Positions 74 through 15,046 of a DNA stretch of 24,818 nucleotides are shown here, piece after piece (within the stretch, counting starts at the first letter, position 1; each line of letters starts with the position of its first letter). A program made the translations under genes and the position numbers. The notes under the pieces are model-generated. The model saw nothing but the letters and a program-made list of their open reading frames with translations, was not told the origin of the DNA and did no database searches. This DNA is from Campylobacterota bacterium (GTDB lineage: Bacteria; Campylobacterota; Campylobacteria; Campylobacterales; Sulfurovaceae): NCBI GenBank assembly GCA_034722955.1, contig JAYEOM010000011.1, forward strand, positions 1 to 24,818, given 5' to 3'.

Positions 74-571
74 CTATATGAAACAATACTCATAATAAGC
101 ACAGCGTTTGCAGTGATTTTCAAATATAGGCTTAGGAGGATTTGATAAATCTATCAACGCCTCTATCTTCCCTAGCACCTCCAAAAGCTCCTTTTCATTC
201 TCATCATCTAGCTCTATATACTCTATCTTTTTACTCTGCCTCTTCTTCTCTATGTACTCAATCTTGCCCTTTTTGAGTACCCCTTTGGCTTTGAGCTTGT
301 AGAGGTAGAGTAGCACCTGCCACTTGACTGCTTCGGGGTCACTATCAGACTTTTTGACCTCTACCAAATAGTCACGGGTGAGTTTGTCTATCTTGACATT
401 GTCTATGCTTATCTCTGTCTTTTTGCCTTTTTCTTCGTTGATTTCGTGGAGTATCTTGCCTATGCGTACATCTTCACTATTCTCTTCGAGGTTGATGCGG
501 TTGGCATGGAGCCAACACTGGGTCTTGCAGTGGAAATAGTAGTTGATTAGTGTTCCTGTGACGGGGTTCAT
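74..571 (-). CDS. cas4: CRISPR-associated exonuclease Cas4
   Basis: VTGTLINYYFHC..Q.WL N-terminus, RecB-like ID...EVKKS motif, QVLLYLY, and C-terminal CxxCxYxxYC Fe-S cysteines; 165 aa, typical of I-B Cas4. Confidence 0.95.
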   Translation of the reverse strand: MNPVTGTLINYYFHCKTQCWLHANRINLEENSEDVRIGKILHEINEEKGKKTEISIDNVKIDKLTRDYLVEVKKSDSDPEAVKWQVLLYLYKLKAKGVLKKGKIEYIEKKRQSKKIEYIELDDENEKELLEVLGKIEALIDLSNPPKPIFENHCKRCAYYEYCFI

Positions 572-581
572 TGTTTTCCTT

Positions 582-1262
582 TTACTCTATAAACTGCAAA
601 CTATGTTTCATAGCATTTCTCAAAAAAACGACCATCTTCGCACTCTCATCAAACCCATCCAAATACTCCCTCTTCTCTTCGCTCAATATTAATGGCGGTA
701 TGAAGTCATTTTGTATCGCTTGAAAAGTCATCAAGAGTCTTCCTATCCGTCCATTGCCATCAGCAAAAGGGTGGATAGTCTCAAACGCAATATGAAACTG
801 AGAAATATCCTCGATATTCATACTACTGTTTTTGTATCTATAGAGTAGATTTTCTAAAGTTTGAGATATCTTATTGGGCGGCGTAAGTGTAACCAAACTA
901 CCTTGTATATGTCTCTCATCAGCTCTATATGCTCCTATAGGTTTGGGGACAAAAGAGGGCATCACCTGCAAAGCATCTTCAAACATAATCTCATGCAAGT
1001 CCTTGATAAAAGCCGTATCAAGCCCTCTTGTAGGATTGGCTGATTCGCGTATCACGACATCAAAAGCCTTGGCAAATCCCAAGATAACCAACTGCTCATG
1101 CATAGGTTTTTCTTTGGCTGTTATGCCATACTCCAAGAGCAATTTAGTCTCTCCAAAAGAGAGTGTAGTTCCCTCCATAGCATTAGAGTGATGCGTCACA
1201 GAGAGCCGCAACTCCCGAAACAGTCTCTCTTTTTGTTTTGTTGTTAGGGTGTTAAGTTTCAT
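582..1262 (-). CDS. Fic/DOC family protein (putative AMPylase with intramolecular inhibitory helix)
   Basis: Canonical HPFADGNGRIGR motif and an N-terminal (S/T)xxxE(G/N) motif, SNAMEG. Confidence 0.93.
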   Translation of the reverse strand: MKLNTLTTKQKERLFRELRLSVTHHSNAMEGTTLSFGETKLLLEYGITAKEKPMHEQLVILGFAKAFDVVIRESANPTRGLDTAFIKDLHEIMFEDALQVMPSFVPKPIGAYRADERHIQGSLVTLTPPNKISQTLENLLYRYKNSSMNIEDISQFHIAFETIHPFADGNGRIGRLLMTFQAIQNDFIPPLILSEEKREYLDGFDESAKMVVFLRNAMKHSLQFIE

Positions 1263-1277
1263 TTTTTGGATTTCCTT

Positions 1278-3908
1278 TTATAAAAACATTCCCACATTTT
1301 CACCCTTTAAAACAGAAGTATCTAAGCCATTTTTATAGGTATAAATAATTGAACCATTTTCAAAGCCTCCGTCATAAGCTAAAAACTCTCTATCTAAAAC
1401 CAAATAACCATACTCCTCTTTAGAATACACTCCTAATCTCTCTACTCCACTTCCTTGATATTTTGCCAAAGAGAAAGTATATTTAGAAATTTCTGAAGCT
1501 AGAGTTTGTAGTTTGATATTTTTATTGGTAAAATCTAACTCTTTGTTTTGAACAAGCTCTCCATACTCTTTCCAGACTCTCATAGCCTCATCACACCAAG
1601 GTACAAAAACAGAAACCGATTCCATATCAATAATCTTAATGTGTGATTCACTAAATCTAAGGTTTTTGATATGATCAATATAACTATCTAATCCCTCTAT
1701 AAATGGAGTATCGTTTGATTCTTTAATCTTTGCAATTACTTGGTTATAATAAATATCAAAATCTTTAGTCTCCAGAACATTTTTTTTCTCTTCTTTTCCC
1801 TCTATTGTTTCTATATATTCAGAGGATATTCCAAGTCTCTTATCGCCCTTATAAACAAACTTAGCTTTAGGATTTTCCATCTCAAACAAAAAGAGTTTAT
1901 TTCCTGCTTTTGAAGAGTTGCGATTGATACGCCCTGCGAGTTGTTCATCACTATCTATAAGAGATTTTTCTTTAAATCCAATATCCATATCTATATCCAC
2001 ACCAGCTTCCACCACCTGTGTAGTCACTAGCAAAATATTTTTATCGTTATTCTCTTTTAAAAAATCAATAATCTCTCTTCTTCTTGGCTCTAATATCGTA
2101 CCACTCAAAATAAATATCTCATCAAAAAATATTTTATTTTTAGCTACTGCCTCTTGATAAAACTCATCTGCACCTTTTTTGGTAATGAACTCTATAATAG
2201 TTCTCACGACATTACTTTCATTACTCTCTAATTTTTGGTACGATTTACTCTCTTGCAATAATCTCTTATAAATATCTTTTGAATCTTTTATAGTTTTCTT
2301 TTCGGTAGATATATCAACTCGTCGTCCAAAATTTGGATTTGAAAAATACTCTTGTTTATTTGATACCAAAGGAATAAACTTACTATTTGGCTCATTTAAA
2401 ATATCGCCTATCTTTGGCAAAGTAGCACTCATAACAATAAATTTGATATTAAATTGCTCTGCAAAACTATCAAGTAGATAAACGATACTAGACCACAAAG
2501 AGGGGCTATAAGTCTGTATCTCATCTATTATTACTATAGAGTTAGCCAATCTATGAAAGATATAGTTATCATCTTTACTTACACCCGTGAGGATATTAAA
2601 AAACTTTACATGACTTAGCATCGTAATAGGATAATTCATAAATTGATTATCTAAAAAGTTTGTTTTATCATCTCCATAAATACCATCTTTCTCTATCTCA
2701 TTCTTATCATTATATTTTGCTTTTGAGTGAAGTTGTACTATCTCACTATTATCGAGATCTAAAACATCTTTTATAGCGTCATAGGTTTGTGTGATAAGTG
2801 TCGTAAATGGAAATACATAAAAGATTTTATTGATAGAACTATCCTCTTTTAAAATCTCAACTGCACTCATAAGAGATAAGTTTGTTTTTCCTGCACCTGT
2901 GGGGGCTTCAATATAAAAGAGATTTTTAGTTATATTGTCTTTTAGATTTTCTCTCACTTCCAAAAAGAGTTTATTTCTTAAGATATTGAGATTTTTATTT
3001 GATTTTTCTTCTAAATATTTAAAATCAATCTCTATAGTTTTAATATCCTTTAGAGCTTGATTAAAAGTCTTTTGTTTCTTGTCTTTATCAAATTTATCAA
3101 TATAAAACTCATTATAAACTTTATCATTAAACTCTTTATCTATCAATCCAAAATCTTTATACGCAAGTTCTTTTTGATTGCCATAATTCATAAATTGAGC
3201 TGTGGCGTAGTAGTCCGATATGATGAGGAGGGAGAAGAGGGATTTTGAGAGTAAAAATAGTGTATCTTTGTTCTCCTCAATATAATCATAAATATAAGAA
3301 AAAACCCTATTTTCATCTTTATGCACTTTAATCAAATTTATTTGAATATCAAAGAGATTTAAAAACTGTTCCAAATCATCAGAAAATTCAAATTCTGAAC
3401 TTTGATAAATAGAACCATGATGCTTTGAAATAAAATATCCAAAAAGATAAACCATACTTTCAATAATTTCTATCTCATCTTCATCCCACTTTTTAACATC
3501 AAGTTCTTCTAAAGAGTGATTGATAAAAAGATATGCACCTAATGGCGAATGATTACTACCCTCTGATAATTCAATATTTTTGAACTTCTCATTAGCCATT
3601 TTATCAACTTGAAAATTATCATTCATTTTTCCCATGTCATGCCAATAAACAGCTTTGGCAAATAGATATTTTACAAAATTACCAAACTCTGTTTTTTCTT
3701 TTACATCTTCCAATAAATCGACACTCTGAACAAAAAGTTTATCAAGATGATTTTCTAAGCCATTTTTATCTACTAGAAGTAAAAAATAGTCATAAACTAA
3801 ATCTATATGCTCCTTTAGGCTCTCTTTTTCATTTTCTCTTATATGTGCTTTATATTTATCATCTATATCACGCTTTATATCCAATTCGCTAAATTTTAAA
3901 AGAGACAT
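1278..3908 (-). CDS. cas3: CRISPR-associated HD nuclease/helicase Cas3
   Basis: N-terminal HD domain (HDMGK, HH, SDY), then SF2 helicase motifs APTGAGKT, IIDEIQ, MSAT, TQVVEAGVDID and QLAGRINR. Confidence 0.96.
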   Translation of the reverse strand: MSLLKFSELDIKRDIDDKYKAHIRENEKESLKEHIDLVYDYFLLLVDKNGLENHLDKLFVQSVDLLEDVKEKTEFGNFVKYLFAKAVYWHDMGKMNDNFQVDKMANEKFKNIELSEGSNHSPLGAYLFINHSLEELDVKKWDEDEIEIIESMVYLFGYFISKHHGSIYQSSEFEFSDDLEQFLNLFDIQINLIKVHKDENRVFSYIYDYIEENKDTLFLLSKSLFSLLIISDYYATAQFMNYGNQKELAYKDFGLIDKEFNDKVYNEFYIDKFDKDKKQKTFNQALKDIKTIEIDFKYLEEKSNKNLNILRNKLFLEVRENLKDNITKNLFYIEAPTGAGKTNLSLMSAVEILKEDSSINKIFYVFPFTTLITQTYDAIKDVLDLDNSEIVQLHSKAKYNDKNEIEKDGIYGDDKTNFLDNQFMNYPITMLSHVKFFNILTGVSKDDNYIFHRLANSIVIIDEIQTYSPSLWSSIVYLLDSFAEQFNIKFIVMSATLPKIGDILNEPNSKFIPLVSNKQEYFSNPNFGRRVDISTEKKTIKDSKDIYKRLLQESKSYQKLESNESNVVRTIIEFITKKGADEFYQEAVAKNKIFFDEIFILSGTILEPRRREIIDFLKENNDKNILLVTTQVVEAGVDIDMDIGFKEKSLIDSDEQLAGRINRNSSKAGNKLFLFEMENPKAKFVYKGDKRLGISSEYIETIEGKEEKKNVLETKDFDIYYNQVIAKIKESNDTPFIEGLDSYIDHIKNLRFSESHIKIIDMESVSVFVPWCDEAMRVWKEYGELVQNKELDFTNKNIKLQTLASEISKYTFSLAKYQGSGVERLGVYSKEEYGYLVLDREFLAYDGGFENGSIIYTYKNGLDTSVLKGENVGMFL

Positions 3909-4633
3909 ATCACACCCTCATCAGTCTCATAAAGATTTTGAAGTTCTTTAGTAGATTTAAACATATTATTAGTATATAAAAAGTCATAATATTTATACTG
4001 TTTTAACTTCTCATCAAAACCAATAGGTAATCTCTCAAATAGATAAAAATAGTTGGTAGTCCTCTCTTTGTATCCACTATTTTTAAGTACAAAATTTTCA
4101 TCTTTTTTTATTATCGTTTTTACTTCAAATTTCTCTTTTGATTCTATTTTTTCAAATTTAGTATGTTGATGGAAATTATCCCACCACAAAGAAAATTCAT
4201 TTTTGCCCATATATGGAGGATAAACAGCTCTATGATTTTTCAAATAATCAATCAACTTTTGATGTTCTTCATTCTCATCATCAAGTTCAAGATAAATTCT
4301 ATAAGCAGGATTGACAAGTGTCTGCTCTGTAATATTGGATATTGAACCATTTGTCGTATTGTTAAAAATGATAAACTCTTTTTTAAATATACCACCATTT
4401 TCACTACTTGGAGCAATGGCTAGTCTAATATCTTTAAGTTTATCATAATACTCTGGCATTTTAGACTTGTCTCTATTTTGATTATGTCCATCATACCCCA
4501 TAATGGCACCAAATATTCCTAAGAGATAAGGCTTATGAATGATATTGTATGATACAAAAATCTTATCATTAATATCAGGCTTTTTAAACATTCCAAACTC
4601 TGACTTAATTGTAAAACTAATTAGTTTTTTCAT
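3896..4633 (-). CDS. cas5: Type I-B Cas5
   Basis: FGMFKKPD...SY..IHKPYLLGIFGAIMG N-terminal motif and YMGKNEF; lies between cas7 and cas3. Confidence 0.92.
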   Translation of the reverse strand: MKKLISFTIKSEFGMFKKPDINDKIFVSYNIIHKPYLLGIFGAIMGYDGHNQNRDKSKMPEYYDKLKDIRLAIAPSSENGGIFKKEFIIFNNTTNGSISNITEQTLVNPAYRIYLELDDENEEHQKLIDYLKNHRAVYPPYMGKNEFSLWWDNFHQHTKFEKIESKEKFEVKTIIKKDENFVLKNSGYKERTTNYFYLFERLPIGFDEKLKQYKYYDFLYTNNMFKSTKELQNLYETDEGVICLF

Positions 4634-4634
4634 A

Positions 4635-5591
4635 TTAGTTCACTTCTACAACTTTTAATAAATCATAAATTTTTACTTTATCTTTTAGTGTATCACTATC
4701 ATTTATAACATTTAAAAGTTCTTCAATATAATAAAGTTCTATAGAATCAATTTCACTTTCATATTTAGTCAAATAAGTTATAAGATTTGTAATATCAAAA
4801 GAGTTATTACCCTCTTTATCTTTTTCAAACTTAATAAACTGTGTAAAACTAGGAAGTGTCAAAGTAGAAGTTTCATTGAGCGTTACATAGATAGAGAGTT
4901 CATTTTCAACTCCAGCTTTTGAATGAGAATCATAAAAAGTAGCAGAGTTATTAAAAGCATTTTTTAAGATAGATATATCATTATTTGATAGAGTTTTTAT
5001 ATCACTCACTGTATTTTTCCAACTTGATAAATTTTGAGGATTTACTGAAAAGTTATGAATATAATGGGCTTCTGTAGCTTTACTCATACTTCCTATCGCT
5101 GTAAATGGTGCTAAGATTTCATCTGTATAGACTCGTCCTTTTTTATATAAATCAGTTGCATGATTAATTTGTACATTTCCATGAATAGAGATATTATTTC
5201 CTTTTGCTCCATCAGGTGTAAAAGTTGCACCAAAAAGTCTTACATCAATAGCCTCTGTTAAATTTTTAAAAACACTCTCTTTATCACTTTTTTTAACATT
5301 TGAATTATCTTTTAATTTGGTATCAAAAAGTACCTCGTAACTTGTTTTCAAATCATCTGTTTCTATCTTATTGTGAAAGTGCTTAGTAAATAATACTTTT
5401 TCATCACTATAATTCTTTTTAATATAGTTTCTTACCAACCACTTAAAAGATTTATCAGTTGCATAAAAACTACCATCACTTTTAAGTCTTCTAGGAAGTC
5501 CAGAAAAATCTGCATTATAATTTGCATTAATTGCCTTAACTACCACACACCCATAAACTCTATTTTTAAATTCACTACTACTCATTTTCAT
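4635..5591 (-). CDS. cas7: Type I-B Cas7 (Csh2-like); true start is probably the ATG at 5585
   Basis: NRVYG...NANYNADFSG.P, ATDKSFKW.VR and DVRLFGATF motifs. The AGGAG RBS is better spaced to the second ATG. Confidence 0.92.
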   Translation of the reverse strand: MKMSSSEFKNRVYGCVVVKAINANYNADFSGLPRRLKSDGSFYATDKSFKWLVRNYIKKNYSDEKVLFTKHFHNKIETDDLKTSYEVLFDTKLKDNSNVKKSDKESVFKNLTEAIDVRLFGATFTPDGAKGNNISIHGNVQINHATDLYKKGRVYTDEILAPFTAIGSMSKATEAHYIHNFSVNPQNLSSWKNTVSDIKTLSNNDISILKNAFNNSATFYDSHSKAGVENELSIYVTLNETSTLTLPSFTQFIKFEKDKEGNNSFDITNLITYLTKYESEIDSIELYYIEELLNVINDSDTLKDKVKIYDLLKVVEVN

Positions 5592-6051
5592 TTTCTCCTA
5601 TGTTATTATTTTGATATTTAATTTGGTTGTCAGAAAAATATCCTGCGATCATATACTCTATTACATTGTCCATCTCTAAATTATCTTTATAGGTCATCAT
5701 CATACTCATAGCATTATCATATCTCCTATCAAATTTCAATTCATGAGCATATTTTTTATGAGTTTCCCACATATACTCTTTAAGTAATTTACTTGTTTGC
5801 CACTCTGTAAACCCTGAAAAGTCGGCATGTGATTTATTCTCATTTTTACCTTTTTTCTTGCTTATTAAGAATCTTGCTAATTGACCACATAAAAAAGCAT
5901 AGAGTTTATCATCATCTAAAATCATTTCAAGACCTCCGACAAACTCCTTTTTTAGTGTTTTTCCATCAGATTTAAATTCTAAACTATCTTGCCAACACCC
6001 CAAAGAATTTCCCATTTTCTTTTTAAGTTCTATAAATTCACCACTATCCAC
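5578..6051 (-). CDS. cas11: Putative internally translated Cas11b (157 aa) within cas8b copy 2
   Basis: In-frame GTG at 6051 preceded by AAAAGGAGGAGACAAAA (strong SD) just before the C-terminal helical domain. Internal Cas11 translation is known for I-B/I-C/I-D. Confidence 0.65.
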   Translation of the reverse strand: MDSGEFIELKKKMGNSLGCWQDSLEFKSDGKTLKKEFVGGLEMILDDDKLYAFLCGQLARFLISKKKGKNENKSHADFSGFTEWQTSKLLKEYMWETHKKYAHELKFDRRYDNAMSMMMTYKDNLEMDNVIEYMIAGYFSDNQIKYQNNNIGENENE

Positions 6052-7524
6052 TTTTGTCTCCTCCTTTTGATTTAAACTAAATAGTAAATTTAGCTTCTCT
6101 TTTATCTCATTTTCATAAATAGAATACCCATCTTTGTTGTTATTATCATGCCTGATATTATCAATAATAATATCAAGTAACATCTCTCTAAAATCTATCA
6201 ATCTTAAAGCACTTTGATGTGATTTATAGATAAAGTCATAAAAATTTTGTCGATACTTAAGAAGATAATTTTTAAGAATGTTGTTTGAATTACCCGAGTC
6301 TATTTTCCAATAGGTTATTTTTAGATCCTTATAGTCACTAAAATAGTTATATTGTAGTTTTTTATCAAAAATAAGCTCATTAATAATTTTTTCAAATTGA
6401 AAGACACTTAGTTTTTTATCATAAAAACCACCTAAATTAAAACTATTTTTTATTTGTAAAAAGTTTTCTATCTTTAGAGTTGTCATATATTCAAAATTTT
6501 CGATATAATCTAAATCTGTAATCTGTAATTTCCAACCATTATCACTTTTTGAATAATAATTTAAAAGATAAAAGTTTTTTAAATCTTTAGGATTTGTATA
6601 ATAGATAGATTTAATTATCTCTCTATAACTCTTCTTCTTCTCATTATCTTTTAAAATACTTTTTTGTTCTCCAAAAAGATTTTTATTATCAATAAATAGA
6701 GGAAAAGGTTTTGTAAGTTGTTGATTATCAGTCATAACCTTAAATTTATGAAGCTTTAAAGTACAAGTTTTACAAACATGATTAGTGAGTTTTAAAGGCA
6801 TAGTACCTTTCATACCTAAATCATCTCCTAATGTAGATAAGACATAAGGTAGAGAAAGCTCATCTGAATATTCTTCACAAAGAGAACAGTTTCCTTTATG
6901 AAACCCTGCTTTTTTTGTATCTAAAAATGCTCTTTTTTCTACAAATTTTTCATAAAAAGACTTCACAATATTTAAGCCTACATCAATATAAACCCGTATC
7001 TCTATAGAAACTTCTTTTTTGTTCTTTTTTTGATTTTCATATTTTTGTTTTAATTCAGTGACAATACTTTTTTTCCCAAGCAATAGTTTTTCAAGATTTT
7101 CTTCAAGATATTTTTGAATTTCTATTAATTTATTTTTATCTTCATCATCATCTAAATAAATACTAGCACTTTCATACTGAACTTTAATTCTGTTTGCTTT
7201 AGCATTTAGATTTGTGTTAACTGTTTCATTCTCATCTAATTTATTATAAAAAACTTTTACTGTCAAAATATATGGAGAGCTTCCTCCTAAACCTTTATTT
7301 TTATCAAGATATTTATTGTGCATACCTTTTTGATAGTAAGTCATATATTTGAGAATCTCTTTTAATTCACTATCTAAATTATCAATATCCAGTAAATCTT
7401 TGCAAACCATATCATTTTGAATTTTAATAAAGTAATGAAGATAGGCTTTACTTACTTCATTTTGAATAAAATAATCCTCTATCTTTGGATTTGCATCCAT
7501 AAACTCCACAATCTCTTTAATCAT
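5578..7524 (-). CDS. cas8b: Type I-B Cas8b large subunit (copy 2, adjacent to cas7), with Zn-finger cysteines
   Basis: Directly upstream of cas7; CSLC...CKTC; C-terminal helical domain with FLCGQLARFLIS and NAMSMMMTY motifs shared with copy 1. Confidence 0.82.
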   Translation of the reverse strand: MIKEIVEFMDANPKIEDYFIQNEVSKAYLHYFIKIQNDMVCKDLLDIDNLDSELKEILKYMTYYQKGMHNKYLDKNKGLGGSSPYILTVKVFYNKLDENETVNTNLNAKANRIKVQYESASIYLDDDEDKNKLIEIQKYLEENLEKLLLGKKSIVTELKQKYENQKKNKKEVSIEIRVYIDVGLNIVKSFYEKFVEKRAFLDTKKAGFHKGNCSLCEEYSDELSLPYVLSTLGDDLGMKGTMPLKLTNHVCKTCTLKLHKFKVMTDNQQLTKPFPLFIDNKNLFGEQKSILKDNEKKKSYREIIKSIYYTNPKDLKNFYLLNYYSKSDNGWKLQITDLDYIENFEYMTTLKIENFLQIKNSFNLGGFYDKKLSVFQFEKIINELIFDKKLQYNYFSDYKDLKITYWKIDSGNSNNILKNYLLKYRQNFYDFIYKSHQSALRLIDFREMLLDIIIDNIRHDNNNKDGYSIYENEIKEKLNLLFSLNQKEETKVDSGEFIELKKKMGNSLGCWQDSLEFKSDGKTLKKEFVGGLEMILDDDKLYAFLCGQLARFLISKKKGKNENKSHADFSGFTEWQTSKLLKEYMWETHKKYAHELKFDRRYDNAMSMMMTYKDNLEMDNVIEYMIAGYFSDNQIKYQNNNIGENENE

Positions 7525-7577
7525 TTTACTAATCCTTTATTTTTTACTAAAATTGCCAAATAAACAAAAAACTGCAT
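7521..7577 (-). CDS. Putative 18-aa leader peptide MQFFVYLAILVKNKGLVK coupled to cas8b copy 2
   Basis: GAGGAG SD 5 nt before the ATG at 7577; its TGA overlaps the cas8b ATG (ATGA). Confidence 0.4.
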   Translation of the reverse strand: MQFFVYLAILVKNKGLVK

Positions 7578-7726
7578 ATAATCTCCTCATATAATTTCTT
7601 CTAAGAGTAAGCCATCTTTTTTCAAAAGTTTTTCAACTTTAAAGCAAAGAGATACTACTCTGTTAGAATTGAAGTACTAACTTCAAATCTTTCCTAAAAC
7701 GATTATGACACACTAAACCTTATAAG

Positions 7727-7744
7727 TCACTAGTATAAGAAAGT
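7727..7744. promoter_or_regulatory. TCA PAM plus crRNA-like-RNA target overlapping a candidate minus-strand -10 box (TATACT, 7737-7732) of the cas8b2 operon
   Basis: + strand reads TCA|CTAGTATAAGAAAGT, 14/15 identical to the sequence following the repeat at 7872. The reverse complement contains TATACT. Confidence 0.65.
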
Positions 7745-7803
7745 AAATAAAAATAGAGAAATTTTAGAAAAAAATAGAAATACTAATCAAATATTTTGTT
7801 TTT

Positions 7804-7814
7804 TATACTAAAAT
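7804..7814 (+). promoter_or_regulatory. Candidate -10 box (TATACT/TAAAAT) for the crRNA-like RNA
   Basis: TATACT at 7804-7809 and TAAAAT at 7809-7814, after an A/T-tract upstream region and just before the 5' arm of the predicted RNA. Confidence 0.4.
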
Positions 7815-7816
7815 CA

Positions 7817-7909
7817 CGATTAGCAACAATATCTTTATCTTTTTGAACCGATACATAAGGTGTATTTAAATCTAGTATAAGATAGTTTTAGAATTGTTGC
7901 TACTTTTTT
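7817..7909 (+). ncRNA. Candidate crRNA-like regulatory RNA (CreR/CreA-like): solitary repeat + pseudo-spacer + U-tract; ends approximate
   Basis: Repeat at 7842-7871, spacer from 7872, flanking 10-bp inverted repeat (TAGCAACAAT 7821-7830 / ATTGTTGCTA 7893-7902) and T6 at 7904-7909. Confidence 0.65.
7842..7871 (+). CRISPR. Solitary type I-B-like CRISPR repeat TTTGAACCGATACATAAGGTGTATTTAAAT
   Basis: 30 nt with an ATACA-TAAGG-TGTAT hairpin and an 8-nt 3' handle ATTTAAAT. Resembles, from recollection, the I-B repeat family of the form NTTGAAC...ACAT...TGTATTTAAAT. Single copy, not an array. Confidence 0.75.
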
Positions 7910-7917
7910 ACCTACTC

Positions 7918-8718
7918 CTACCTACCAATACAACATTTCTTATACTTCTTACCACTGCCACAAGGACAAGGGTCATTTCTGCCCACTTTTGAAAAAGGTT
8001 CTATATTGTCTTGAAATACATTAAGCTTAGTTTTCTCTTTTCGTAAACCTAAATGTATTTCTATACTTTCTATATCTCCACACATTAGCTCATCTACATC
8101 TTTAGTTTTATAAGTTTTACGAATCAAATCAATATGTCTATCTTTTCCGAGGGTAACAAGAGATGTGATAGCAAAAGAGAGAGCGACAGGATGGGTCTTT
8201 TCATTTTCTAGATAACGAATCATCATAGCTTCTATACGATTAGAACTATTTGGCTCTGTTTCTAACATATACTCTATACCATCAAAGATACCTATAAGTC
8301 CATATAATTCTGGATTTTCAAATATATATTTCTCAAAATAATCCAATCCATCTATACCCATATTTGTGACATATTGGACAAAAGCTTCAAGAAAATATTC
8401 ATTTCCATCATTCTCTTTCTCTTTCTATTTCTTCTCTAAAATAATATCAATAGACTCCACAGCTTTTATTTTACCTAGAACATTGACAGCATGTATCGTA
8501 GCAAAAAAGAATTTTTCTATTAATTTATCATCATCTATCAAGTTATATGCTTCATATGTAGCCAATTCAATAAGCTCATCTGTATCATCTTTTGTAAATT
8601 TGAATTTTTCATAAATCTTTAAATTAACTTTTCCTCGCAAAGACTCTTTGCCCAACTCAAACAGTGCTTGTATCTTTGTTGAATACTTTTTTGTAAAATC
8701 TCCGTATACTCTGTTCAT
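7918..8718 (-). pseudogene. Helical (DUF1186-like) + SEC-C motif protein interrupted by one in-frame TAG at 8425-8427
   Basis: ORFs 8425-8718 and 7918-8361 are in the same frame, reading ...[31 protein letters not shown]...; C-terminus [20 protein letters not shown]. The DUF1186 label is tentative. Confidence 0.75.
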
Positions 8719-9398
8719 TTTGTTTCTCCTTTTGATTTTAGTTTTTTGGTTAAGAAATAGACTATCATTTGAGAAAACTCATAATATTTACCATTATCAT
8801 CTATCTCTTCATACTTGCTAACATCCTGCTTGATGGTCTGATTTGTCCAGCCTCGTTTATTTAGATTTTGAATTAACCTTTGATAAGATTGCTTTCGGTT
8901 TCTTTTCAACATTGAATTATTGAGATTTAAAATAGTGTTTAACTCTTTATCTATTCTAGAATCCACAGAAGAGATGTCTCCTAATTTAGAATATTTTATA
9001 TATTGCTCTATAGCACCTAAAAGATTGATACTATTTAATTCATCTTCTCCTTTAAAGCTATCACAATACTGCTCTTTTTTTCGTTTGCCCTCGCCTCCAT
9101 TACAAGCAATAAAAAGATTTTGGTAATCTATTTGCACATCTCTATTTTTTGTTTGTGGTTTAAAATGTTCTATTTTACTACTATTGCAATCTATGCGACT
9201 CATACAATAACAACAGATATAACCTTGCTCTTCTAAAAGCTGTTTTCTTAGATTATATTTTTCATCTTCGCTACAACCTTCTTTTGTTTTATCTTTAAAA
9301 TCTTCATAAATATTACTTTTTCTCAAATCACTATGAGTAATAGAGCTTCTATACTCTGTAAGACTTTTGGGTTCTGTTCCTTTATTTATCTGTTTCAA
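8715..9398 (-). CDS. HNH endonuclease, TIGR02646 / Septu-retron PtuB-like
   Basis: LLEEQGYICCYCMSRI, IEHFKPQ, DYQNLFIAC...CDSFKG and LNLN..L...R motifs; directly downstream of an ABC ATPase. Confidence 0.85.
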   Translation of the reverse strand: MKQINKGTEPKSLTEYRSSITHSDLRKSNIYEDFKDKTKEGCSEDEKYNLRKQLLEEQGYICCYCMSRIDCNSSKIEHFKPQTKNRDVQIDYQNLFIACNGGEGKRKKEQYCDSFKGEDELNSINLLGAIEQYIKYSKLGDISSVDSRIDKELNTILNLNNSMLKRNRKQSYQRLIQNLNKRGWTNQTIKQDVSKYEEIDDNGKYYEFSQMIVYFLTKKLKSKGETK

Positions 9399-9401
9399 GT
9401 A

Positions 9402-10328
9402 TTAATCCCTCCAAAAAGCTATATCATTTCTCATTGCCAAAACTTCACTATCATTTTCACCTATAACCTTTTCAAGAGTATCAATACATATTTCAGCTTC
9501 ATCATATTTGTCATCATTCAAAAGCTCTTGACACTCTTTAATTTTTTTGGAGACACTCTCTTCTCTTGTATATTGTATTCCCATAACTTCTTCAAGAACC
9601 CACTCTATATCACGACCATAAGCCAATACATCATTTATAACCTCGACCTCGTCATTTTCATTCATAGCAAGAAGTCTAATCCACTCATTTTTTGCACTCC
9701 CAATAATATGAGGCGAATGAGTAGCTATAATGATTTGACAATTATTCTCTTTGGCAAAAGTTTCATAGAGTTTCAGTATTTTATTTTGCCATGATGGATG
9801 CAGAGATAGCTCTGGCTCATCTATAAGAACAATTTGGTTTCTAATATCTTTAAAATAGAGGTACAACACTTTAGAGAGAAGAGTTTTCTCTCCTGTAGAT
9901 ATATCATCTATAGAGAGCTTGTCACCTCTTTTATTTCTAAAAAATAAATTTCCCTCTCCATCTCTACTATCAAATACTATTTTCATATCAAAACCATCTA
10001 ATATACTATTGATATAATTACGAACTCTTTTGTATATTTTACTCGCAACTATATCCTCTTCATAAACCATTTTTTCTATATATTTGGGCATAAATTCTTT
10101 GATGTCGTTCAAACTATATTGTGCAGGGAAGTAGATAGAATTATGGGCAATTTCACTCTTTATAAACTCTAAAATAGTTGTTTTTCCTGTACCATTGACT
10201 CCTGCTATGATAATAAGCGGTAGAGGATTGCTATTTTTATCAGAAAATGAGATTTTAAAATCTTGAAACAATTTATACTCTACGATATGTAAGTCTTGTA
10301 ATTTTTCTCCTCTATCTACATCAAACAT
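9402..10328 (-). CDS. ABC/AAA ATPase, Septu/retron PtuA-like
   Basis: Walker A GVNGTGKT, signature ISTGEK, Walker B VLIDEPELSLHPSWQ, H-loop ATHSPH and C-terminal YGRD..WVLEEVMG. No adjacent permease; paired with the HNH gene. Confidence 0.85.
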   Translation of the reverse strand: MFDVDRGEKLQDLHIVEYKLFQDFKISFSDKNSNPLPLIIIAGVNGTGKTTILEFIKSEIAHNSIYFPAQYSLNDIKEFMPKYIEKMVYEEDIVASKIYKRVRNYINSILDGFDMKIVFDSRDGEGNLFFRNKRGDKLSIDDISTGEKTLLSKVLYLYFKDIRNQIVLIDEPELSLHPSWQNKILKLYETFAKENNCQIIIATHSPHIIGSAKNEWIRLLAMNENDEVEVINDVLAYGRDIEWVLEEVMGIQYTREESVSKKIKECQELLNDDKYDEAEICIDTLEKVIGENDSEVLAMRNDIAFWRD

Positions 10329-10713
10329 TATCTACTTCCCTCTTCATATAAAAGATATTCTCACTCAAAGCCCCCACCAAAAAACTATCCATATTTTTAG
10401 ATAGAGATAGTTTATCACTCTCATCATACGCCATAATCAAACTCATAGCATTGTTGAACTTCACATATCCCAAGCTAATGGCGTGTTTATATTTGAAGTA
10501 TTCACTCTCTATGACTCTCTTTAGCTTAGTTGAACTGTTGGCTCTCAAATAAGACTCTAGCAAATCACCATTTTTTTGATGAGCTTTGCTCTGCGATATG
10601 AGATATTTTGCCATCTGACCAGAGATATAAAAAAACTCTTCTGCTGTTAGATTATCATAATTTGCATCCTCTATTCTCTCTATCATACTCTCTTGCATCT
10701 TTTTTATATTCAT
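10321..10713 (-). CDS. cas11: Putative internally translated Cas11b (130 aa) within cas8b copy 1
   Basis: In-frame ATG at 10713 (MNIKKMQ...) preceded by AAAAGGGAGAAGAGACT. Confidence 0.6.
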   Translation of the reverse strand: MNIKKMQESMIERIEDANYDNLTAEEFFYISGQMAKYLISQSKAHQKNGDLLESYLRANSSTKLKRVIESEYFKYKHAISLGYVKFNNAMSLIMAYDESDKLSLSKNMDSFLVGALSENIFYMKREVDNV

Positions 10714-11988
10714 AGTCTCTTCTCCCTTTTTGCGTAATGAAAATTTTAGATTTAAGCTCAGTCCAGCTGAAAGAAATCTCCCTCTAATGATATGTTCTAT
10801 AGCCAAATGTGTTGCATACTTCTCTATGACTTTATAAAATGCTCTATCATCATACTTTTTGAAATACCCACTCATCGCATCGCGTGTAGTGTAGATAAAT
10901 GAAGCGAAATTATTGTCAAGTTTTTTATACACTTCTCCATAATAGTTATTTTTGAGTTGTCTATTATAGAGTACCTCATCTATTTTATCCTCTAAAATAT
11001 TGAGATATTCTATAGTCTCATCTTCTATCAGCACTTTACCCTTTTTGAGTAGCAGATGGTTTTTTATAGTGATAGGCTCTTTTAATTTATCTATTTTAAT
11101 AGGCAAATAATCAAAATCTATAACCAAATCTTTTTCTCTAAAGTCCCTATTGATAAAAAACTCACTACCTAGGGGTGTTTTGTCCATATATTTTTGAGTC
11201 TTTAGCCAATCAAAAAACTTTTTTTCCATAAGAACATCTTCTTTGAGTATCAGAAATGGTGTAGATGTTTTTCTTGTTAAATTCTTACAAAATGGTTTTT
11301 TATCATTTAGCACTATATTTGAATCAGGTAAACCATAAATAAGATTTTCTATGTATTTTGAATAAATATTTTTATTAAAAAGTTTAAGTGAAAAATAGAT
11401 AGCACTTTCTTCTTTATATCTATCCAATGGCACATCAAAAAATATTTTAATATAATTGGTAATTTCATTATCTTTTGCAAGATTCATAATTGTTTCCATA
11501 TTATTTTTTAAAAATTTATATTTTTTAGCAACATCACGCTTTCTATCACAAGTATTTAATTTCTTATACTCTTTTACAATTTTTATTTCATGTTTATCTT
11601 TGAAAGAAAAATTCAATAATTTATTATATAGATTTTTTTTAATATGTTCTAAATTCTCTAAATTAAATTGCTCGACTTTCATATATAAAGATAAATAATT
11701 ATTATTATGAATAATCTTTTTGGGTGCATCAAGAACTTTTCTATTGCTTATCACATCACTATAATAGTCCCTCTCCTTAAACCACTCATAGGCTTTACTA
11801 TTTAATCCACCGTTGATATCACTAAAAATTAGTTCTCTATTTTTGCGTTTGACTATAAAAGCTTGGGAGGTCTTATCACTATTGACTTTGATATACATCC
11901 CCTCTTTTAGCTCATAAGAACCCAAAATTAGCATATCACCTCTCTGTTCATACTCTCTTTTGAATACTTCTAATAAATCATAAATCAT
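10321..11988 (-). CDS. cas8b: Type I-B Cas8b/Csh1-like large subunit (copy 1, adjacent to cas6)
   Basis: Csh1-like N-terminus (MIYDLLEVFK...ILGSYEL.EG.YI, RDYYS, KKIIHNNNYLS, LNDKKPF) and C-terminal SGQMAKYLISQSK and NNAMSLIMAY; ATGA overlap with cas6. Confidence 0.82.
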   Translation of the reverse strand: MIYDLLEVFKREYEQRGDMLILGSYELKEGMYIKVNSDKTSQAFIVKRKNRELIFSDINGGLNSKAYEWFKERDYYSDVISNRKVLDAPKKIIHNNNYLSLYMKVEQFNLENLEHIKKNLYNKLLNFSFKDKHEIKIVKEYKKLNTCDRKRDVAKKYKFLKNNMETIMNLAKDNEITNYIKIFFDVPLDRYKEESAIYFSLKLFNKNIYSKYIENLIYGLPDSNIVLNDKKPFCKNLTRKTSTPFLILKEDVLMEKKFFDWLKTQKYMDKTPLGSEFFINRDFREKDLVIDFDYLPIKIDKLKEPITIKNHLLLKKGKVLIEDETIEYLNILEDKIDEVLYNRQLKNNYYGEVYKKLDNNFASFIYTTRDAMSGYFKKYDDRAFYKVIEKYATHLAIEHIIRGRFLSAGLSLNLKFSLRKKGEETMNIKKMQESMIERIEDANYDNLTAEEFFYISGQMAKYLISQSKAHQKNGDLLESYLRANSSTKLKRVIESEYFKYKHAISLGYVKFNNAMSLIMAYDESDKLSLSKNMDSFLVGALSENIFYMKREVDNV

Positions 11989-12707
11989 CTCATCCCCCTA
12001 CCCAAACAAAACCCACCACCAAAGCTATTCTTCTCTCCAAGCCCACAAGCTAGGGCTACAAAAGCCAACTTTTGGCTCACTTCATCTTCGTTGGGAACTA
12101 TCTTGAACTTATTGCCATAAAACTTGACAGGTTTGCCATCACTATGTGTTTTGTTGGTTTGTATAGTCTGTAGGCGGTTGTTTTTGAGTTCAAATAGTTG
12201 GATGAAGTTTTGTATGCTTTTGATTGGTTCATTGTAAAACTCTTGGTATTTTTTCTCTAGGTTGTCTTGAAGTTGTTTATGTAGGAGCATCAAGTCATCT
12301 TCTTTGACCCAGTATCTGTCTTTGGCTACGGTGACGATGACAGGGGTGGCAGAGTAGAGTTCTGAGATGAAAAATTGGTTGATAGTTTTTTTGTGTGTCT
12401 CTACTATGAGTAGGTGGGGGTTGTCTATGTTGGCTCTTAGCGTAGTGGAGAGTCTATCTATGAAGCTCTTCTCTAGTGAGCGGATGACAAACTTATAGGT
12501 GTTGCCTTTGAGATATATCTTGTCGCGTTCTATGGGAAGTAGTCCACCAAACAGATAGTGTTTAAATCCTGTAGTACTATGAAGTTTTTTCAGCTCCTCG
12601 TCTTGAGCCATAGAGTAGCTGATATAGCGTGATAGTATGTCAAAGCTTTGCGTGAAGCTAATATCCTCTTTTATGTATGCTGTGCATGTCAGTTCAAAAT
12701 ATTTCAA
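11985..12707 (-). CDS. cas6: CRISPR-associated endoribonuclease Cas6
   Basis: C-terminal G-rich loop GLGEKNSFGGGF; H...FKHYLF motif; TTG start with AAGGAG RBS. Confidence 0.95.
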   Translation of the reverse strand: MKYFELTCTAYIKEDISFTQSFDILSRYISYSMAQDEELKKLHSTTGFKHYLFGGLLPIERDKIYLKGNTYKFVIRSLEKSFIDRLSTTLRANIDNPHLLIVETHKKTINQFFISELYSATPVIVTVAKDRYWVKEDDLMLLHKQLQDNLEKKYQEFYNEPIKSIQNFIQLFELKNNRLQTIQTNKTHSDGKPVKFYGNKFKIVPNEDEVSQKLAFVALACGLGEKNSFGGGFCLGRGMR

Positions 12708-12805: not shown

Positions 12806-15046
12806 TTAGAAACGCTCCTCCATCTCTACATTGATCTCTCTCATTTTTGCTCCTTGATCTAGGCATCGTATCTGATGTTTGCCAGGGGGTAGGTAGCGGT
12901 ATAGCGGTATCCCTGATTTGCCCTCAAGTGGAGGGTCATTGTCTATCAGCCACAGGATAGTGGTATTTGTCTCAAAGGCGTAGCATTGTAGTTTTGTCTT
13001 TTTGAACTCTTGGGGCAAGAGTCTGTTTTGGATCTGTTTCTGCCCATCGACAGGACTGGTGATGAGGGGATCATATGCTCTCCACATGGGATAGCAGGTA
13101 TGGGATGATAGCTCCTCCATAGAGCTGATACGCCTACGGTCAAAGAGTGTCGCTAGAACCTCTGCACGCAGTAGATGACATGGCAGTGTCGCATCGACCC
13201 CATCGATAACTTCATCATATATATACTCTCTGCAAGCTCCTATCTCTATGGTATCTTGACATATTTTTTTACTCTTGATACCTTGAGGCTTGACAAACCA
13301 CTCCTTGGGCTTAAGCAGCCCAAAGATATCCAACAGTGTCGGAGAAGCTGCGGCTAGCCCTGTAAGTCTCCTCTCTTTTTTGCCACTACTAGTCAAGCTC
13401 TTTCCCATAGAGCCATCAAAGTTACCATACCACACTGCGACCGTATATTCAGGAGTATACCCAATACTCAGCATATCTCTAGCATTGGCAGATGTCCCTG
13501 TCTTGAACGCCACTCTCGAACTACTCCCCATATACTCCCATGAGCTTGTAAACGATTGTCTCGGAGCATCGACAAGGATTTGACTGATGAGATAGGAGGA
13601 CTCCTCTGTGAGGATCTTCTGACCTATGGGCGGACTATGGGGCAAAAACGAGCTATTTCGGTAGAGACCTTTGTTTGCAAAAGAGGCAAACAGTTCTGCC
13701 AAATTTTTGAGCGTGATGCCACACCCGCCCAGTGTCAATGAACTACCATAATAATCTTTTGGATGGTTGATAGAGGAGATATTTGCCTGCTTGAGCAGAC
13801 TATAGAGAGAGGCATCACCTAGAAGTCTATCTAGCTCAACAGCAGGGATATTGAGAGAGAGTTGCAGTGCCTCTTTGGCTGTCACTTCACCTAGAAACTG
13901 TTCACTGTAGTTGAGCGGTTTGTAGCCTTCGATACTCAGAGGGATATCATATAGTTTTCTCAGCGGAGTGATAAGTCCCTGCTCCAGTGCTTTGGCATAG
14001 ATGAAAGGCTTGAGTGTCGAACCGGGACTCACTAGTGCTTTGAGACCATCCACCTCTCCTCCATATCTCTTGTCTCTAAAATCTTGAGAGCCTACATAAG
14101 CCAATATTGTCATATCTCTATTGTCGATGACAATTGCGGCAGCATTGTAGATATGCAGCTGATTTAGTATCTCTATCTTATCTTTTAGAAGATATTCTAT
14201 CTGCTGCTGTAGGGAGAGATCTATCGTAGTGACAACCTTGCCTCCGCCTCTAAATTTGGCACTAAGTTGCGGAGCGAAATATACCAAATCCGCTCTATGA
14301 GGAGATAGACTCTCCTGCATAGCCCTACTATACCTCTCTTGTGATAAACCATCATCATCATAGAGTCTAGTGAGCACCTTCTCTTTGAGACGGTTTATAC
14401 GAGAGAAGTTTTTTGACTCTTTTTTGGGCAGGTTTAGATTTGGATTTTGAGGGATAGCTATGAGGTAGGCTATCTGAGCAAGCGAAAGAGACTCTACAGG
14501 CGTGTCGAAGTAGGCAAAAGCAGCCGATGAGAAACCCTCTATATTTCCCCCGTATGGTGTATTGTTGAGGTACATTTCCAAAATCTCATCTTTGGAGTAG
14601 TGATACTCCAGCTGTAGAGAGATAAACATCTCTATAAGTTTATTGCCTACTGTTCTAGGCTTGCGATGCATCATCCTAGCTACCTGCATCGTCAGTGTTG
14701 AAGCCCCTATGGTGCGTCGGTTTCGGAGATTGAACCATGCGGCTCTAGCCAGAGAGATGGGGTTGATACCAAAATGGTGATAAAAATAGTGATCTTCATA
14801 TGCCAAGAGTGTTTGCCTGATATCTTCTGTGATCTCAGATGACTCTATGGGTATCCGCAAAAATCCATCTTCGCTCAAGTGCAGACGCAGCAGTTGATGG
14901 TGCCGATCATAGATCAGGGTTGACTGGGGTTTATAGAGTCGTTTTCGATCCAGAGGATAGAGTCTATCCAGCAGCAAAAACAGAAAGATAGAGAGGAGTA
15001 TAGATAGAGATAAAACTTTGATAGTTTTTCCTACTTTTACCACCAT
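12806..15046 (-). CDS. pbpC: Penicillin-binding protein 1C
   Basis: N-terminal TM; transglycosylase motifs EDHYFYHHFG and GASTLTMQVAR; transpeptidase STLK, SLN and KTGT; PBP1C C-terminal domain (PGKHQI). Confidence 0.92.
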   Translation of the reverse strand: MVVKVGKTIKVLSLSILLSIFLFLLLDRLYPLDRKRLYKPQSTLIYDRHHQLLRLHLSEDGFLRIPIESSEITEDIRQTLLAYEDHYFYHHFGINPISLARAAWFNLRNRRTIGASTLTMQVARMMHRKPRTVGNKLIEMFISLQLEYHYSKDEILEMYLNNTPYGGNIEGFSSAAFAYFDTPVESLSLAQIAYLIAIPQNPNLNLPKKESKNFSRINRLKEKVLTRLYDDDGLSQERYSRAMQESLSPHRADLVYFAPQLSAKFRGGGKVVTTIDLSLQQQIEYLLKDKIEILNQLHIYNAAAIVIDNRDMTILAYVGSQDFRDKRYGGEVDGLKALVSPGSTLKPFIYAKALEQGLITPLRKLYDIPLSIEGYKPLNYSEQFLGEVTAKEALQLSLNIPAVELDRLLGDASLYSLLKQANISSINHPKDYYGSSLTLGGCGITLKNLAELFASFANKGLYRNSSFLPHSPPIGQKILTEESSYLISQILVDAPRQSFTSSWEYMGSSSRVAFKTGTSANARDMLSIGYTPEYTVAVWYGNFDGSMGKSLTSSGKKERRLTGLAAASPTLLDIFGLLKPKEWFVKPQGIKSKKICQDTIEIGACREYIYDEVIDGVDATLPCHLLRAEVLATLFDRRRISSMEELSSHTCYPMWRAYDPLITSPVDGQKQIQNRLLPQEFKKTKLQCYAFETNTTILWLIDNDPPLEGKSGIPLYRYLPPGKHQIRCLDQGAKMREINVEMEERF

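Follow-up and report, generated by a model that had tools for sequence, protein, structure and literature searches.

A type I-B CRISPR-Cas locus with two Cas8b genes in a Campylobacterota bacterium, a probable mosaic of two effector cassettes

Effector and adaptation modules of CRISPR-Cas systems are reportedly shuffled by recombination, a theme of the Makarova and Koonin classification papers. Here we describe a type I-B operon in a metagenome-assembled Campylobacterota genome (assembly GCA_034722955.1, contig JAYEOM010000011.1) that encodes two divergent large subunits, Cas8b-1 and Cas8b-2, with a Septu gene pair and a broken gene between them. According to excerpts of PMC11096372, PMC11899642 and bioRxiv 10.1101/2020.04.18.045682, canonical type I-B operons have the order cas6-cas8b-cas7-cas5-cas3-cas4-cas1-cas2, and the small subunit Cas11b is made from an internal start in cas8b. 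Septu consists of the ATPase PtuA and the HNH nuclease PtuB, and has been co-opted by retron Ec78/Eco7 (excerpts of PMC12819146, PMC12673091 and PMC13096335). The CreA/CreR element of the Haloarcula hispanica type I-B system, located between cas6 and cas8, is a repressor of the cas8 promoter but not of cas6 (excerpt of bioRxiv 10.1101/2023.03.10.532045).

The window analyzed is the entire 24.8-kb contig (24,818 nucleotides, nt) of a genome that is 99.97% complete by marker genes. All genes from cas6 to cas4 are on the minus strand and are listed here in minus-strand reading direction. The locus is likely a recombination mosaic of two effector cassettes, in which Cas8b-1 was orphaned, together with the Septu pair, by an incomplete cassette exchange. 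Directly supporting this are the gene identities, the affinities of the genes to two cassettes, a scar of a lost cas7, the absence of a Cas7 cognate to Cas8b-1 from the assembly, and the recurrence of ptuA-ptuB in related operons.

Two intact open reading frames (ORFs) of the Cas8b/Cas11 type were identified, as a first-pass annotation had proposed. Both cas8b-1 (10321..11988, 555 amino acids (aa), GC content 28.5%) and cas8b-2 (5578..7524, 648 aa) are on the minus strand and have zero internal stops. Both match the PADLOC Cas8b model PDLC01507, copy 1 over its full length (residues 1-552, E 3.3e-108) and copy 2 over residues 289-641 (E 9.3e-34). Neither was matched in Pfam and NCBIfam scans, and a PDB sequence search gave zero matches for copy 1 and one irrelevant match for copy 2 (ribosomal protein L1, E 0.012). 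The C-termini are homologous and the N-termini dissimilar, as first described. BLASTP matched only the C-terminal region (95 aa, 26% identity, E 2e-7), and a profile-profile comparison (12 vs 18 family sequences) aligned Cas8b-1 residues 303-550 with Cas8b-2 residues 347-639 over ~240 columns (probability 99.5%, E 4e-22), leaving the N-terminal ~300 residues unmatched. The AlphaFold model of copy 1 (predicted local distance difference test score, pLDDT, 73.2) aligns best to type I-C Cas8c chains (Z 8.1-9.8; 8dfs_I with 421 aligned residues and a root-mean-square deviation of 10.1), and a small helical protein, 3e0z, is the match for its residues 426-552 (Z 11.0; next unrelated row Z 4.6). The same similarities are weaker for copy 2 (pLDDT 70.5; Cas8c Z 6.0-7.7; residues 494-638 to 3e0z, Z 8.7), and Foldseek gave zero matches in the PDB at E <= 0.001 for either model. 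Both proteins are thus Cas8b-like by profile and structure searches, which disposes of the concern that one of them is not, and both are predicted to have a Cas8-like fold with a Cas11-like helical C-terminal domain.

The CxxC...CxxC motif noted earlier in copy 2 alone is indeed missing from copy 1 and is kept across the copy-2 family, in which C213 never varies and C216, C251 and C254 almost never do (codons 6888..6763). In copy 1, Met426 is invariant in 12 homologues and is preceded by a GGGAG ribosome site (upstream sequence aaGGGAGaagagact). This fits a putative, internally translated Cas11b of 130 aa (10321..10713, minus strand), with its start assigned by these features. Copy 2 has Met504, without a clear ribosome site, and Met534, which has GGAGG but is not conserved. 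The two copies also differ in position. Copy 2 precedes its cognate cas7-cas5-cas3 but has no cas6 before it; copy 1 follows cas6 and is followed by ptuA, and all that is present of its cognate cas7 is 19 nt.

We refer to the cassette with Cas8b-1 as type 1 and that with Cas8b-2 as type 2, and to the type-1 partner genes as cas7', cas5' and cas3'. In the window, the type-2 cassette includes cas7 (4635..5591, minus strand; Pfam PF05107, 92.9 bits), cas5 (3896..4633, minus strand; NCBIfam Cas5b, 96 bits, just under the cut-off of 97; PADLOC Cas5, E 9.7e-29) and cas3, which encodes an HD nuclease and helicase (1278..3908, minus strand; NCBIfam cas3_core 147 bits, cas3_HD 57 bits). Among 61 related genomes, homologues of Cas8b-1 occur in 7 and of Cas8b-2 in 4, the window's genome being counted in both. 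One relative (G034) has the order cas6-cas8b2-cas7-cas5-cas3-cas4, with proteins 58, 59, 68, 73, 65 and 63% identical, respectively, to those of the window. In a canonical locus on a metagenome contig (L060), Cas8b-2, Cas7, Cas5 and Cas3 are 85, 92, 93 and 94% identical, the Cas3 figure covering the first 284 aa. Overall, the type-2 proteins of the window are 59-94% identical to those of canonical cas6-cas8b2-cas7-cas5-cas3 loci (Cas8b-2 alone, 59-85%). Loci that encode Cas8b-1 homologues (45-66% identical) have Cas7, Cas5 and Cas3 proteins just 28-38% identical to those of the window. The sister of Cas8b-1 is the copy of G375 (67% identity).

Comparison of the Cas8 affinities with those of the other cas genes, a check that the first-pass annotation had suggested, therefore gives a split result: Cas8b-2 tracks Cas7, Cas5 and Cas3, and Cas8b-1 belongs to the other cassette. 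Most likely, Cas8b-2, Cas7 and Cas5 form a working Cascade with Cas3, encoded by one coherent cassette. A single Cas7/Cas5/Cas3 set had been described as shared by the two copies. There is indeed one set in the assembled genome (one Pfam Cas7 hit), but "sharing" is misleading because the Septu pair and a pseudogene separate the copies and the partners of the Cas8b-1 family are only ~30% identical to the resident ones. We did not find a type-1 Cas7 elsewhere in the assembled genome, where the other-cassette Cas7 query matched only the resident cas7.

The remainder of the system is common to both cassettes. The repeat family occurs with both types, and the repeats of G196 (type 1) and L073 (type 2) are nearly identical. 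Cas6 does not separate by cassette in a tree that is itself unresolved. Nor does Cas4, which is 79% identical to that of a type-1 locus and 82% to those of two type-2 loci (L073 and L074); given the latter, an assignment of Cas4 as type-1-like was dropped.

Gene order was surveyed in a sample of 401 genomes of the order, 26 of which, other than the window's own, have a Cas8b-1 homologue; 23 of these loci are resolved downstream and 3 are cut by contig ends. In the resolved type-1 loci, cas7' follows directly in 16/23, after a small ORF or gap in 3/23 and after ptuA-ptuB in 4/23. None of the 23 has a second cas8b, and no double-Cas8b locus was found among 35 related loci. Upstream context was available for 12 type-2 loci; in each of them cas6 lies upstream, without cas8b-1 or ptuA-ptuB.

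The first-pass annotation did not recognize the intervening genes as ptuA, ptuB and a broken SEC-C gene, and it overlooked a solitary CRISPR-repeat-like element. The ORF of 97 aa that follows ptuB starts with MNRVYG, as type-1 Cas7 does in 8 type-1 loci, and shares with them the upstream sequence aaaggag. In this region, 11/11 residues are identical to the Cas7 start region of G011, and 73/91 nt match the ptuB-cas7' junction of G375. The 97-aa ORF (8718..8425) and a 147-aa ORF (8361..7918) are in one frame and are split by a single TAG at 8427..8425. Together they make up a broken SEC-C/DUF1186-like gene (7918..8718, minus strand), the read-through product of which is 47-66% identical to 7 aligned SEC-C/DUF1186-like proteins (271-288 aa). 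Full-length homologues start with MLET..., not MNRVYG, and homology begins only at about residue 10 of the window ORF. Thus, the first 19 nt of cas7' are fused in frame to a 5'-truncated, stop-broken SEC-C gene. The scar, which comprises the ribosome-binding site and these 19 nt of the lost type-1 cas7, extends over 8700..8735 (minus strand), with the breakpoint at 8699/8700. In sequencing run X5, from a different study, contigs match the window to base 8700 and then continue as cas7' (..VLGIKAKMAN). An X5 contig with the fused SEC-C ORF has 6 nt missing at 8422, which removes the TAG.

The TAG lies in a 6-nt stretch (8422-8427) that is missing from the X5 contig and from all 7 aligned homologues. 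A contig of run X3 has a 1-nt deletion at 8426, and the stop site is polymorphic in related populations. When five relatives were searched with the SEC-C gene product, the matches were confined to the C-terminal SEC-C motif of proteins ~875 aa and 163 aa long.

The adjacent genes ptuA (9402..10328, minus strand, 308 aa, a short-form Septu ABC-type ATPase) and ptuB (8715..9398, minus strand, 227 aa, a Septu HNH nuclease) match the Septu PADLOC profiles (E 5.6e-73 and E 1.9e-61). Both score below the cut-offs of the NCBIfam equivalog models (140 vs 500 bits for PtuA, 87.7 vs 150 bits for PtuB); ptuB is above the cut-off of NCBIfam TIGR02646 (69.1 vs 52.15 bits). The four type-1 loci with ptuA-ptuB between cas8b1 and cas7' belong to G375, G196, G414 and G080 (loci L022, L050, L051 and L052), and their genes abut or overlap. 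A further locus in G029 (L017, in the first sample of genomes) reads cas6-cas8b1-ptuA, and then the contig ends. The PtuA proteins encoded within cas operons are 487-512 aa long and share a ~150-aa N-terminal domain starting MTYW(H/Y)MQLHP, which is also found in one stand-alone PtuA. This domain is lacking from the PtuA of the window, whose nearest matches are short PtuAs in G343 (69-71%, partial) and G047 (60%, stand-alone). The Septu pair probably acts as an independent defence, with a putative anti-phage activity. A literature search on Septu or PtuAB inside cas operons found no paper describing such a placement. One on two Cas8b genes in a single locus likewise found no describing paper, and its sole "two Cas8" text match was irrelevant.

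The 393-bp gap upstream of cas8b-2 (7917..7525) holds a solitary degenerate CRISPR repeat, psi-R (7842..7871, plus strand, antisense to the cas genes). It agrees with the array repeat, as seen on contig C71 of the same genome, at 26/30 positions. The hairpin loop accounts for three of the four mismatches, so that the ATACA/TGTAT stem is preserved. Directly after psi-R is a pseudo-spacer (7872..7905, plus strand) that ends in a hairpin and T-run. Its first 15 nt match 7730-7744 at 14/15 positions, and we identified the surrounding sequence (7727..7744, plus strand; TCA and then CTAGTATAAGAAAGT) as the candidate target of a CRISPR RNA (crRNA)-like RNA. On the minus strand, a promoter-like site (7730..7702) has a -35-like hexamer that the target overlaps. 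Such sites are no commoner here than in shuffled sequence (32 found, 27.7 expected), so the cas8b-2 promoter is only a candidate, based on its match to the consensus. The independent contig L062 has the same element in the interval from the end of cas6 to cas8b2, with 123 nt aligned at 80% identity; there the pseudo-spacer and its target co-vary, both showing a C-to-G difference. Alignment of the region upstream of cas8b-2 with those of G034 and G043 gave no conserved element; it is shared only by L062. An Rfam scan of 7400-8100 gave no match, and only one repeat-like unit was seen, without a systematic search for another.

The first-pass annotation had also placed the two copies under different promoters, with only one of them targeted by the crRNA-like RNA. 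Separate promoters are plausible, as cas8b-2 has its own upstream region; the overlaps of cas8b-1 with cas6 and ptuA make its transcription from upstream of cas6 probable. That the RNA would act on the cas8b-2 promoter only is supported as a candidate, and the element belongs to the type-2 cassette. A small hydrophobic ORF of 18 codons (MQFFVYLAILVKNKGLVK; 7521-7577, minus strand) is preceded by GAGGAG and ends in a stop codon that overlaps the start of cas8b-2; the corresponding position upstream of cas8b2 in L062 (299-385, plus strand) is occupied by an ORF of 28 codons that begins with MQF. The small ORF could encode a leader peptide or a CreT-like toxin controlled by the repeat-like RNA.

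From these features we infer which Cas8b works, the transcription units, the regulation by the repeat-like RNA and the possible order of events. Two cassettes would circulate in Campylobacterales on a common type I-B backbone made up of cas6, the repeat family and cas4-cas1-cas2. The genes cas8b-1, ptuA and ptuB would be the remainder of a cas6-cas8b1-(ptuA-ptuB)-cas7'-cas5'-cas3' arrangement of the kind seen in relatives, from which cas7', cas5' and cas3' were presumably lost, leaving the cas7' ribosome site and six codons fused to the truncated, stop-broken SEC-C gene. The starting point may have been a type-1 locus whose effector genes were replaced, or a type-2 locus that received a type-1 fragment between cas6 and cas8b-2. 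The repeat-like element would have arrived with the type-2 cassette, and by analogy probably represses the cas8b-2 promoter in the manner of CreR/CreA, with cas8b-1 probably still co-transcribed with cas6 and the Septu pair. A still-intact remnant, left after replacement of a cas8-7-5-3 module, was among the explanations first put forward, and the breakpoint scar and the split gene affinities favour it. The data neither favour nor refute the other two, alternative Cascades and a decoy or sensor Cas8.

Several observations weigh against this mosaic interpretation. Cas8b-1 is without signs of decay: it has zero stop codons, retains the internal Cas11 start and ribosome site, and departs at 11/129 columns that are invariant in 7 relatives, which is mid-range (0 to 16% in the family). 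Its branch is long (0.42 vs 0.086 for its sister), and relative-rate tests with four outgroups gave 73-103 changes unique to the window vs 19-33 unique to the sister (p 1e-5 to 3e-11; control pairs balanced), so that the lineage is 2.5 to 4.4 times faster. No rate asymmetry was detected for Cas8b-2, Cas7, Cas5 and Cas4; Cas3 is asymmetric with 1/3 outgroups (76 vs 43, p 0.002), and the PtuB tests were mixed by outgroup (41 vs 12, 20 vs 28, 23 vs 9) and were not used. In neutral simulations, the frame survives 44-76 excess changes in only 0.1-3.3% of trials, and the open frame therefore indicates that Cas8b-1 was under selection for most of its branch. Run X5 has ~92% identical cas8b-1 pieces alongside an intact ptuB-cas7' junction. 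If these pieces are from one genome, the extra changes may predate orphaning; thus, the rates and simulations decide nothing about the present function of Cas8b-1. The left block (cas8b-1 and ptuA-ptuB) is itself mosaic, given that the short PtuA of the window comes nearest to stand-alone PtuAs (60-71% identity) and shares only 47% with the cas-embedded ones. The Cas6 and Cas4 comparisons favour neither direction of the event. Finally, the window is a metagenome-assembled contig, and among the contig pieces listed none covers 7525-7605, the link from psi-R to cas8b-2.

In a rival reading, the two genes provide alternative Cascades, with Cas8b-1 on the same crRNA, Cas5 and Cas7 backbone conferring a second range of protospacer-adjacent motifs (PAMs) or resistance to anti-CRISPR proteins that target Cas8b-2. 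Both genes are intact, the conserved core and Cas11 start of Cas8b-1 are kept, the repeat and Cas6 families are common to both cassette types, and 51/73 lineage-specific changes fall in residues 100-299, in the N-terminal part, which is the most divergent between the families. However, the fast evolution of Cas8b-1 may predate the event, the Cas7 and Cas5 partners of its homologues share just 28-38% identity with the resident proteins, the arrangement occurs in 0/35 related loci, and the scar shows that the partners were lost in a recombination accident rather than a designed duplication. We consider such alternative Cascades unlikely. An even smaller chance is given to the idea that Cas8b-1 was kept for work with PtuAB, as a sensor, scaffold or regulator, such that a cas8b1-ptuA-ptuB unit can outlive Cascade. 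The tight cas8b1-ptuA-ptuB-cas7' order in G375, G196, G414, G080 and partly in G029, across several GTDB families, is consistent with such a unit, as are the 8-nt overlap of cas8b-1 and ptuA in the window and the survival of exactly the cas8b1-ptuA-ptuB block. Yet every complete relative has a full Cascade and cas3, and a Cascade-independent role is without precedent. In other genomes, 14/18 PtuA loci do not show the cas8b1-ptuA-ptuB-cas7' context, the two closest full-length PtuA loci (G047 and G043) are beside unrelated genes, and 16/23 resolved type-1 loci lack ptuA-ptuB; other small ORFs occur at the same site, which fits an insertion hot spot. Prediction of a complex of Cas8b-1 and PtuA gave scores of 0.28 and 0.00 (mark 0.32; run without controls), and is evidence neither way.

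It is also conceivable, at long odds, that the contig is an assembly chimera of a type-1 strain and a type-2 strain that co-occur, and that no cell has both Cas8b proteins. The metagenomic source and the uncovered interval at 7525-7605 would allow this. In X2, an independent sample of the same study, bases 7156-7524 of cas8b-2 (0 mismatches) directly abut another allele of cas6, which has 21 mismatches over 122 nt, and run X5 also has a cas6|cas8b-2 joint; canonical variants therefore co-exist with the double-Cas8b arrangement. However, contigs from this same independent sample cover the new junctions: one of 2,325 nt (3 mismatches) spans 8173-10473, with the SEC-C ORFs, the scar, ptuB, ptuA and the 3' end of cas8b-1, and one of 298 nt (0 mismatches) spans 7873-8170, across the SEC-C stop and into the pseudo-spacer after psi-R. 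Further, psi-R is directly upstream of cas8b2 in the independent contig L062, depth is present in 30/30 bins for X2, and the cas7'-SEC-C fusion needs a real recombinant regardless. An incomplete exchange of cassettes thus accounts for the locus best, and the event looks recent.

The first gene in the listed order is pbp1C (15046..12806, minus strand), followed by cas6 (11985..12707, minus strand, 240 aa; NCBIfam TIGR01877, 73.6 bits with a cut-off of 58.65; PADLOC Cas6b, E 1.9e-72), which has a host-genome-like GC content of 40% and a 4-nt overlap with cas8b-1. Beyond cas3 are a fic-domain gene (582..1262, minus strand, GC 40%; Pfam Fic, E 1.6e-17; PADLOC PDC-S04, E 7.9e-40) and cas4 (74..571, minus strand; Pfam Cas_Cas4, E 2.9e-49). 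The end of contig C71, which carries cas1 and the first array repeats, shares k-mers with the start of the window. The operon should thus continue past cas4 onto C71, with cas1 and the CRISPR array, and cas2 is expected there by position. In the window, cas6, fic and cas4 have a host-like GC content of 40-42%, and the genes from cas3 through cas8b-1 one of 24-32%. GC content was rejected as a marker of a native block, as cas6 and cas4 also tend to be GC-richer than the effector genes in six relatives, where the contrast is smaller. Also present in the genome are two more CRISPR arrays (C43 from ~16540 to the end; C109 from 1 to ~400), whose repeats of 30 and 37 nt are unrelated, and two further cas1 genes (C109 and C106), indicating at least three CRISPR-Cas systems.

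Accessory ORFs are found at nearly every gene junction of these I-B operons in some genome. Homologues of the fic-domain protein (61-63% identical) are encoded between cas7 and cas5 in G056 (L016 4707-5393) and G080 (L052 11846-12532); this gene thus occurs at differing junctions, cas3/cas4 in the window and cas7/cas5 in these two. ORFs of 421 aa are present between cas3 and cas4 (L064, L073 and L074), and a 778-aa NERD and SEC-C protein is encoded between cas5 and cas3 in G048 (L019 4214-6550). Small uncharacterised ORFs occur between cas6 and cas8b or between cas8b and cas7 (L023/L089 1490-1957; L096 3161-3655; 226-228 aa in L091, L092 and L098; 172 aa in L071 and L082). In G043, two small ORFs replace cas6 upstream of a cas8b-2 homologue that is 81% identical (L014 3762-4284). 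By eye, these resemble a putative nucleotidyltransferase/HEPN toxin-antitoxin pair.

As it stands, the locus is an instructive, not a surprising, product of defence-island recombination. Its value is as a base-resolved snapshot of a type I-B effector cassette swap on a shared cas6, repeat and adaptation backbone, which indicates that a large subunit can stay behind intact during such a swap. Two leads follow: in several Campylobacterales lineages, the junction of cas8b and cas7 in type I-B operons houses Septu genes, and a CreR/CreTA-like repeat element appears to travel with the type-2 cassette. If the orphan Cas8b is functional, it bears on the evolution of PAM range and anti-CRISPR resistance. 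It is improbable that Cas8b-1 either stays with ptuA-ptuB as a working partner, coupling Cascade status or anti-CRISPR attack to PtuAB, or joins the resident Cascade as a second large subunit. Were one of these the case, the cas8b-ptuA-ptuB-cas7 operons of Campylobacterales would represent a previously undescribed CRISPR-Septu hybrid system.

In comparison with described systems, the locus has all the parts of a canonical type I-B operon, including the order cas8b-2-cas7-cas5-cas3, a predicted Cas11-like C-terminus in both Cas8b proteins, and an internal Met with a ribosome site in copy 1. It differs in having a second Cas8b, from a deeply divergent cassette and without its own Cas7, Cas5 and Cas3, and ~3.7 kb of foreign genes between cas6 and the presumed working cas8b. 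As in modular shuffling, two effector cassettes (~30% identical) appear to have been exchanged by recombination on one cas6/repeat/cas4 backbone; here, the exchange appears frozen before completion: its breakpoint in cas7 can be placed to the base, and one large subunit has become an orphan. Like retron Ec78, as presented in the excerpts cited above, the locus has a ptuA-ptuB pair inside the operon of another defence system. Here, however, the host operon is type I-B cas, the pair is between cas8b and cas7, reverse transcriptase and multicopy single-stranded DNA (msDNA) are lacking, and the association with the cas genes is one of gene placement. The repeat-like element resembles CreTA/CreR, to the extent that the cited excerpt describes it, in having a degenerate repeat, a pseudo-spacer and a short seed match by a PAM-like triplet upstream of cas8. 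It differs in its single repeat-like unit seen, in its bacterial host and in its separation from cas6 by the inserted block, and it is recognized from its sequence. In L062 the element sits between cas6 and cas8, as CreTA does in the excerpt on Haloarcula hispanica.

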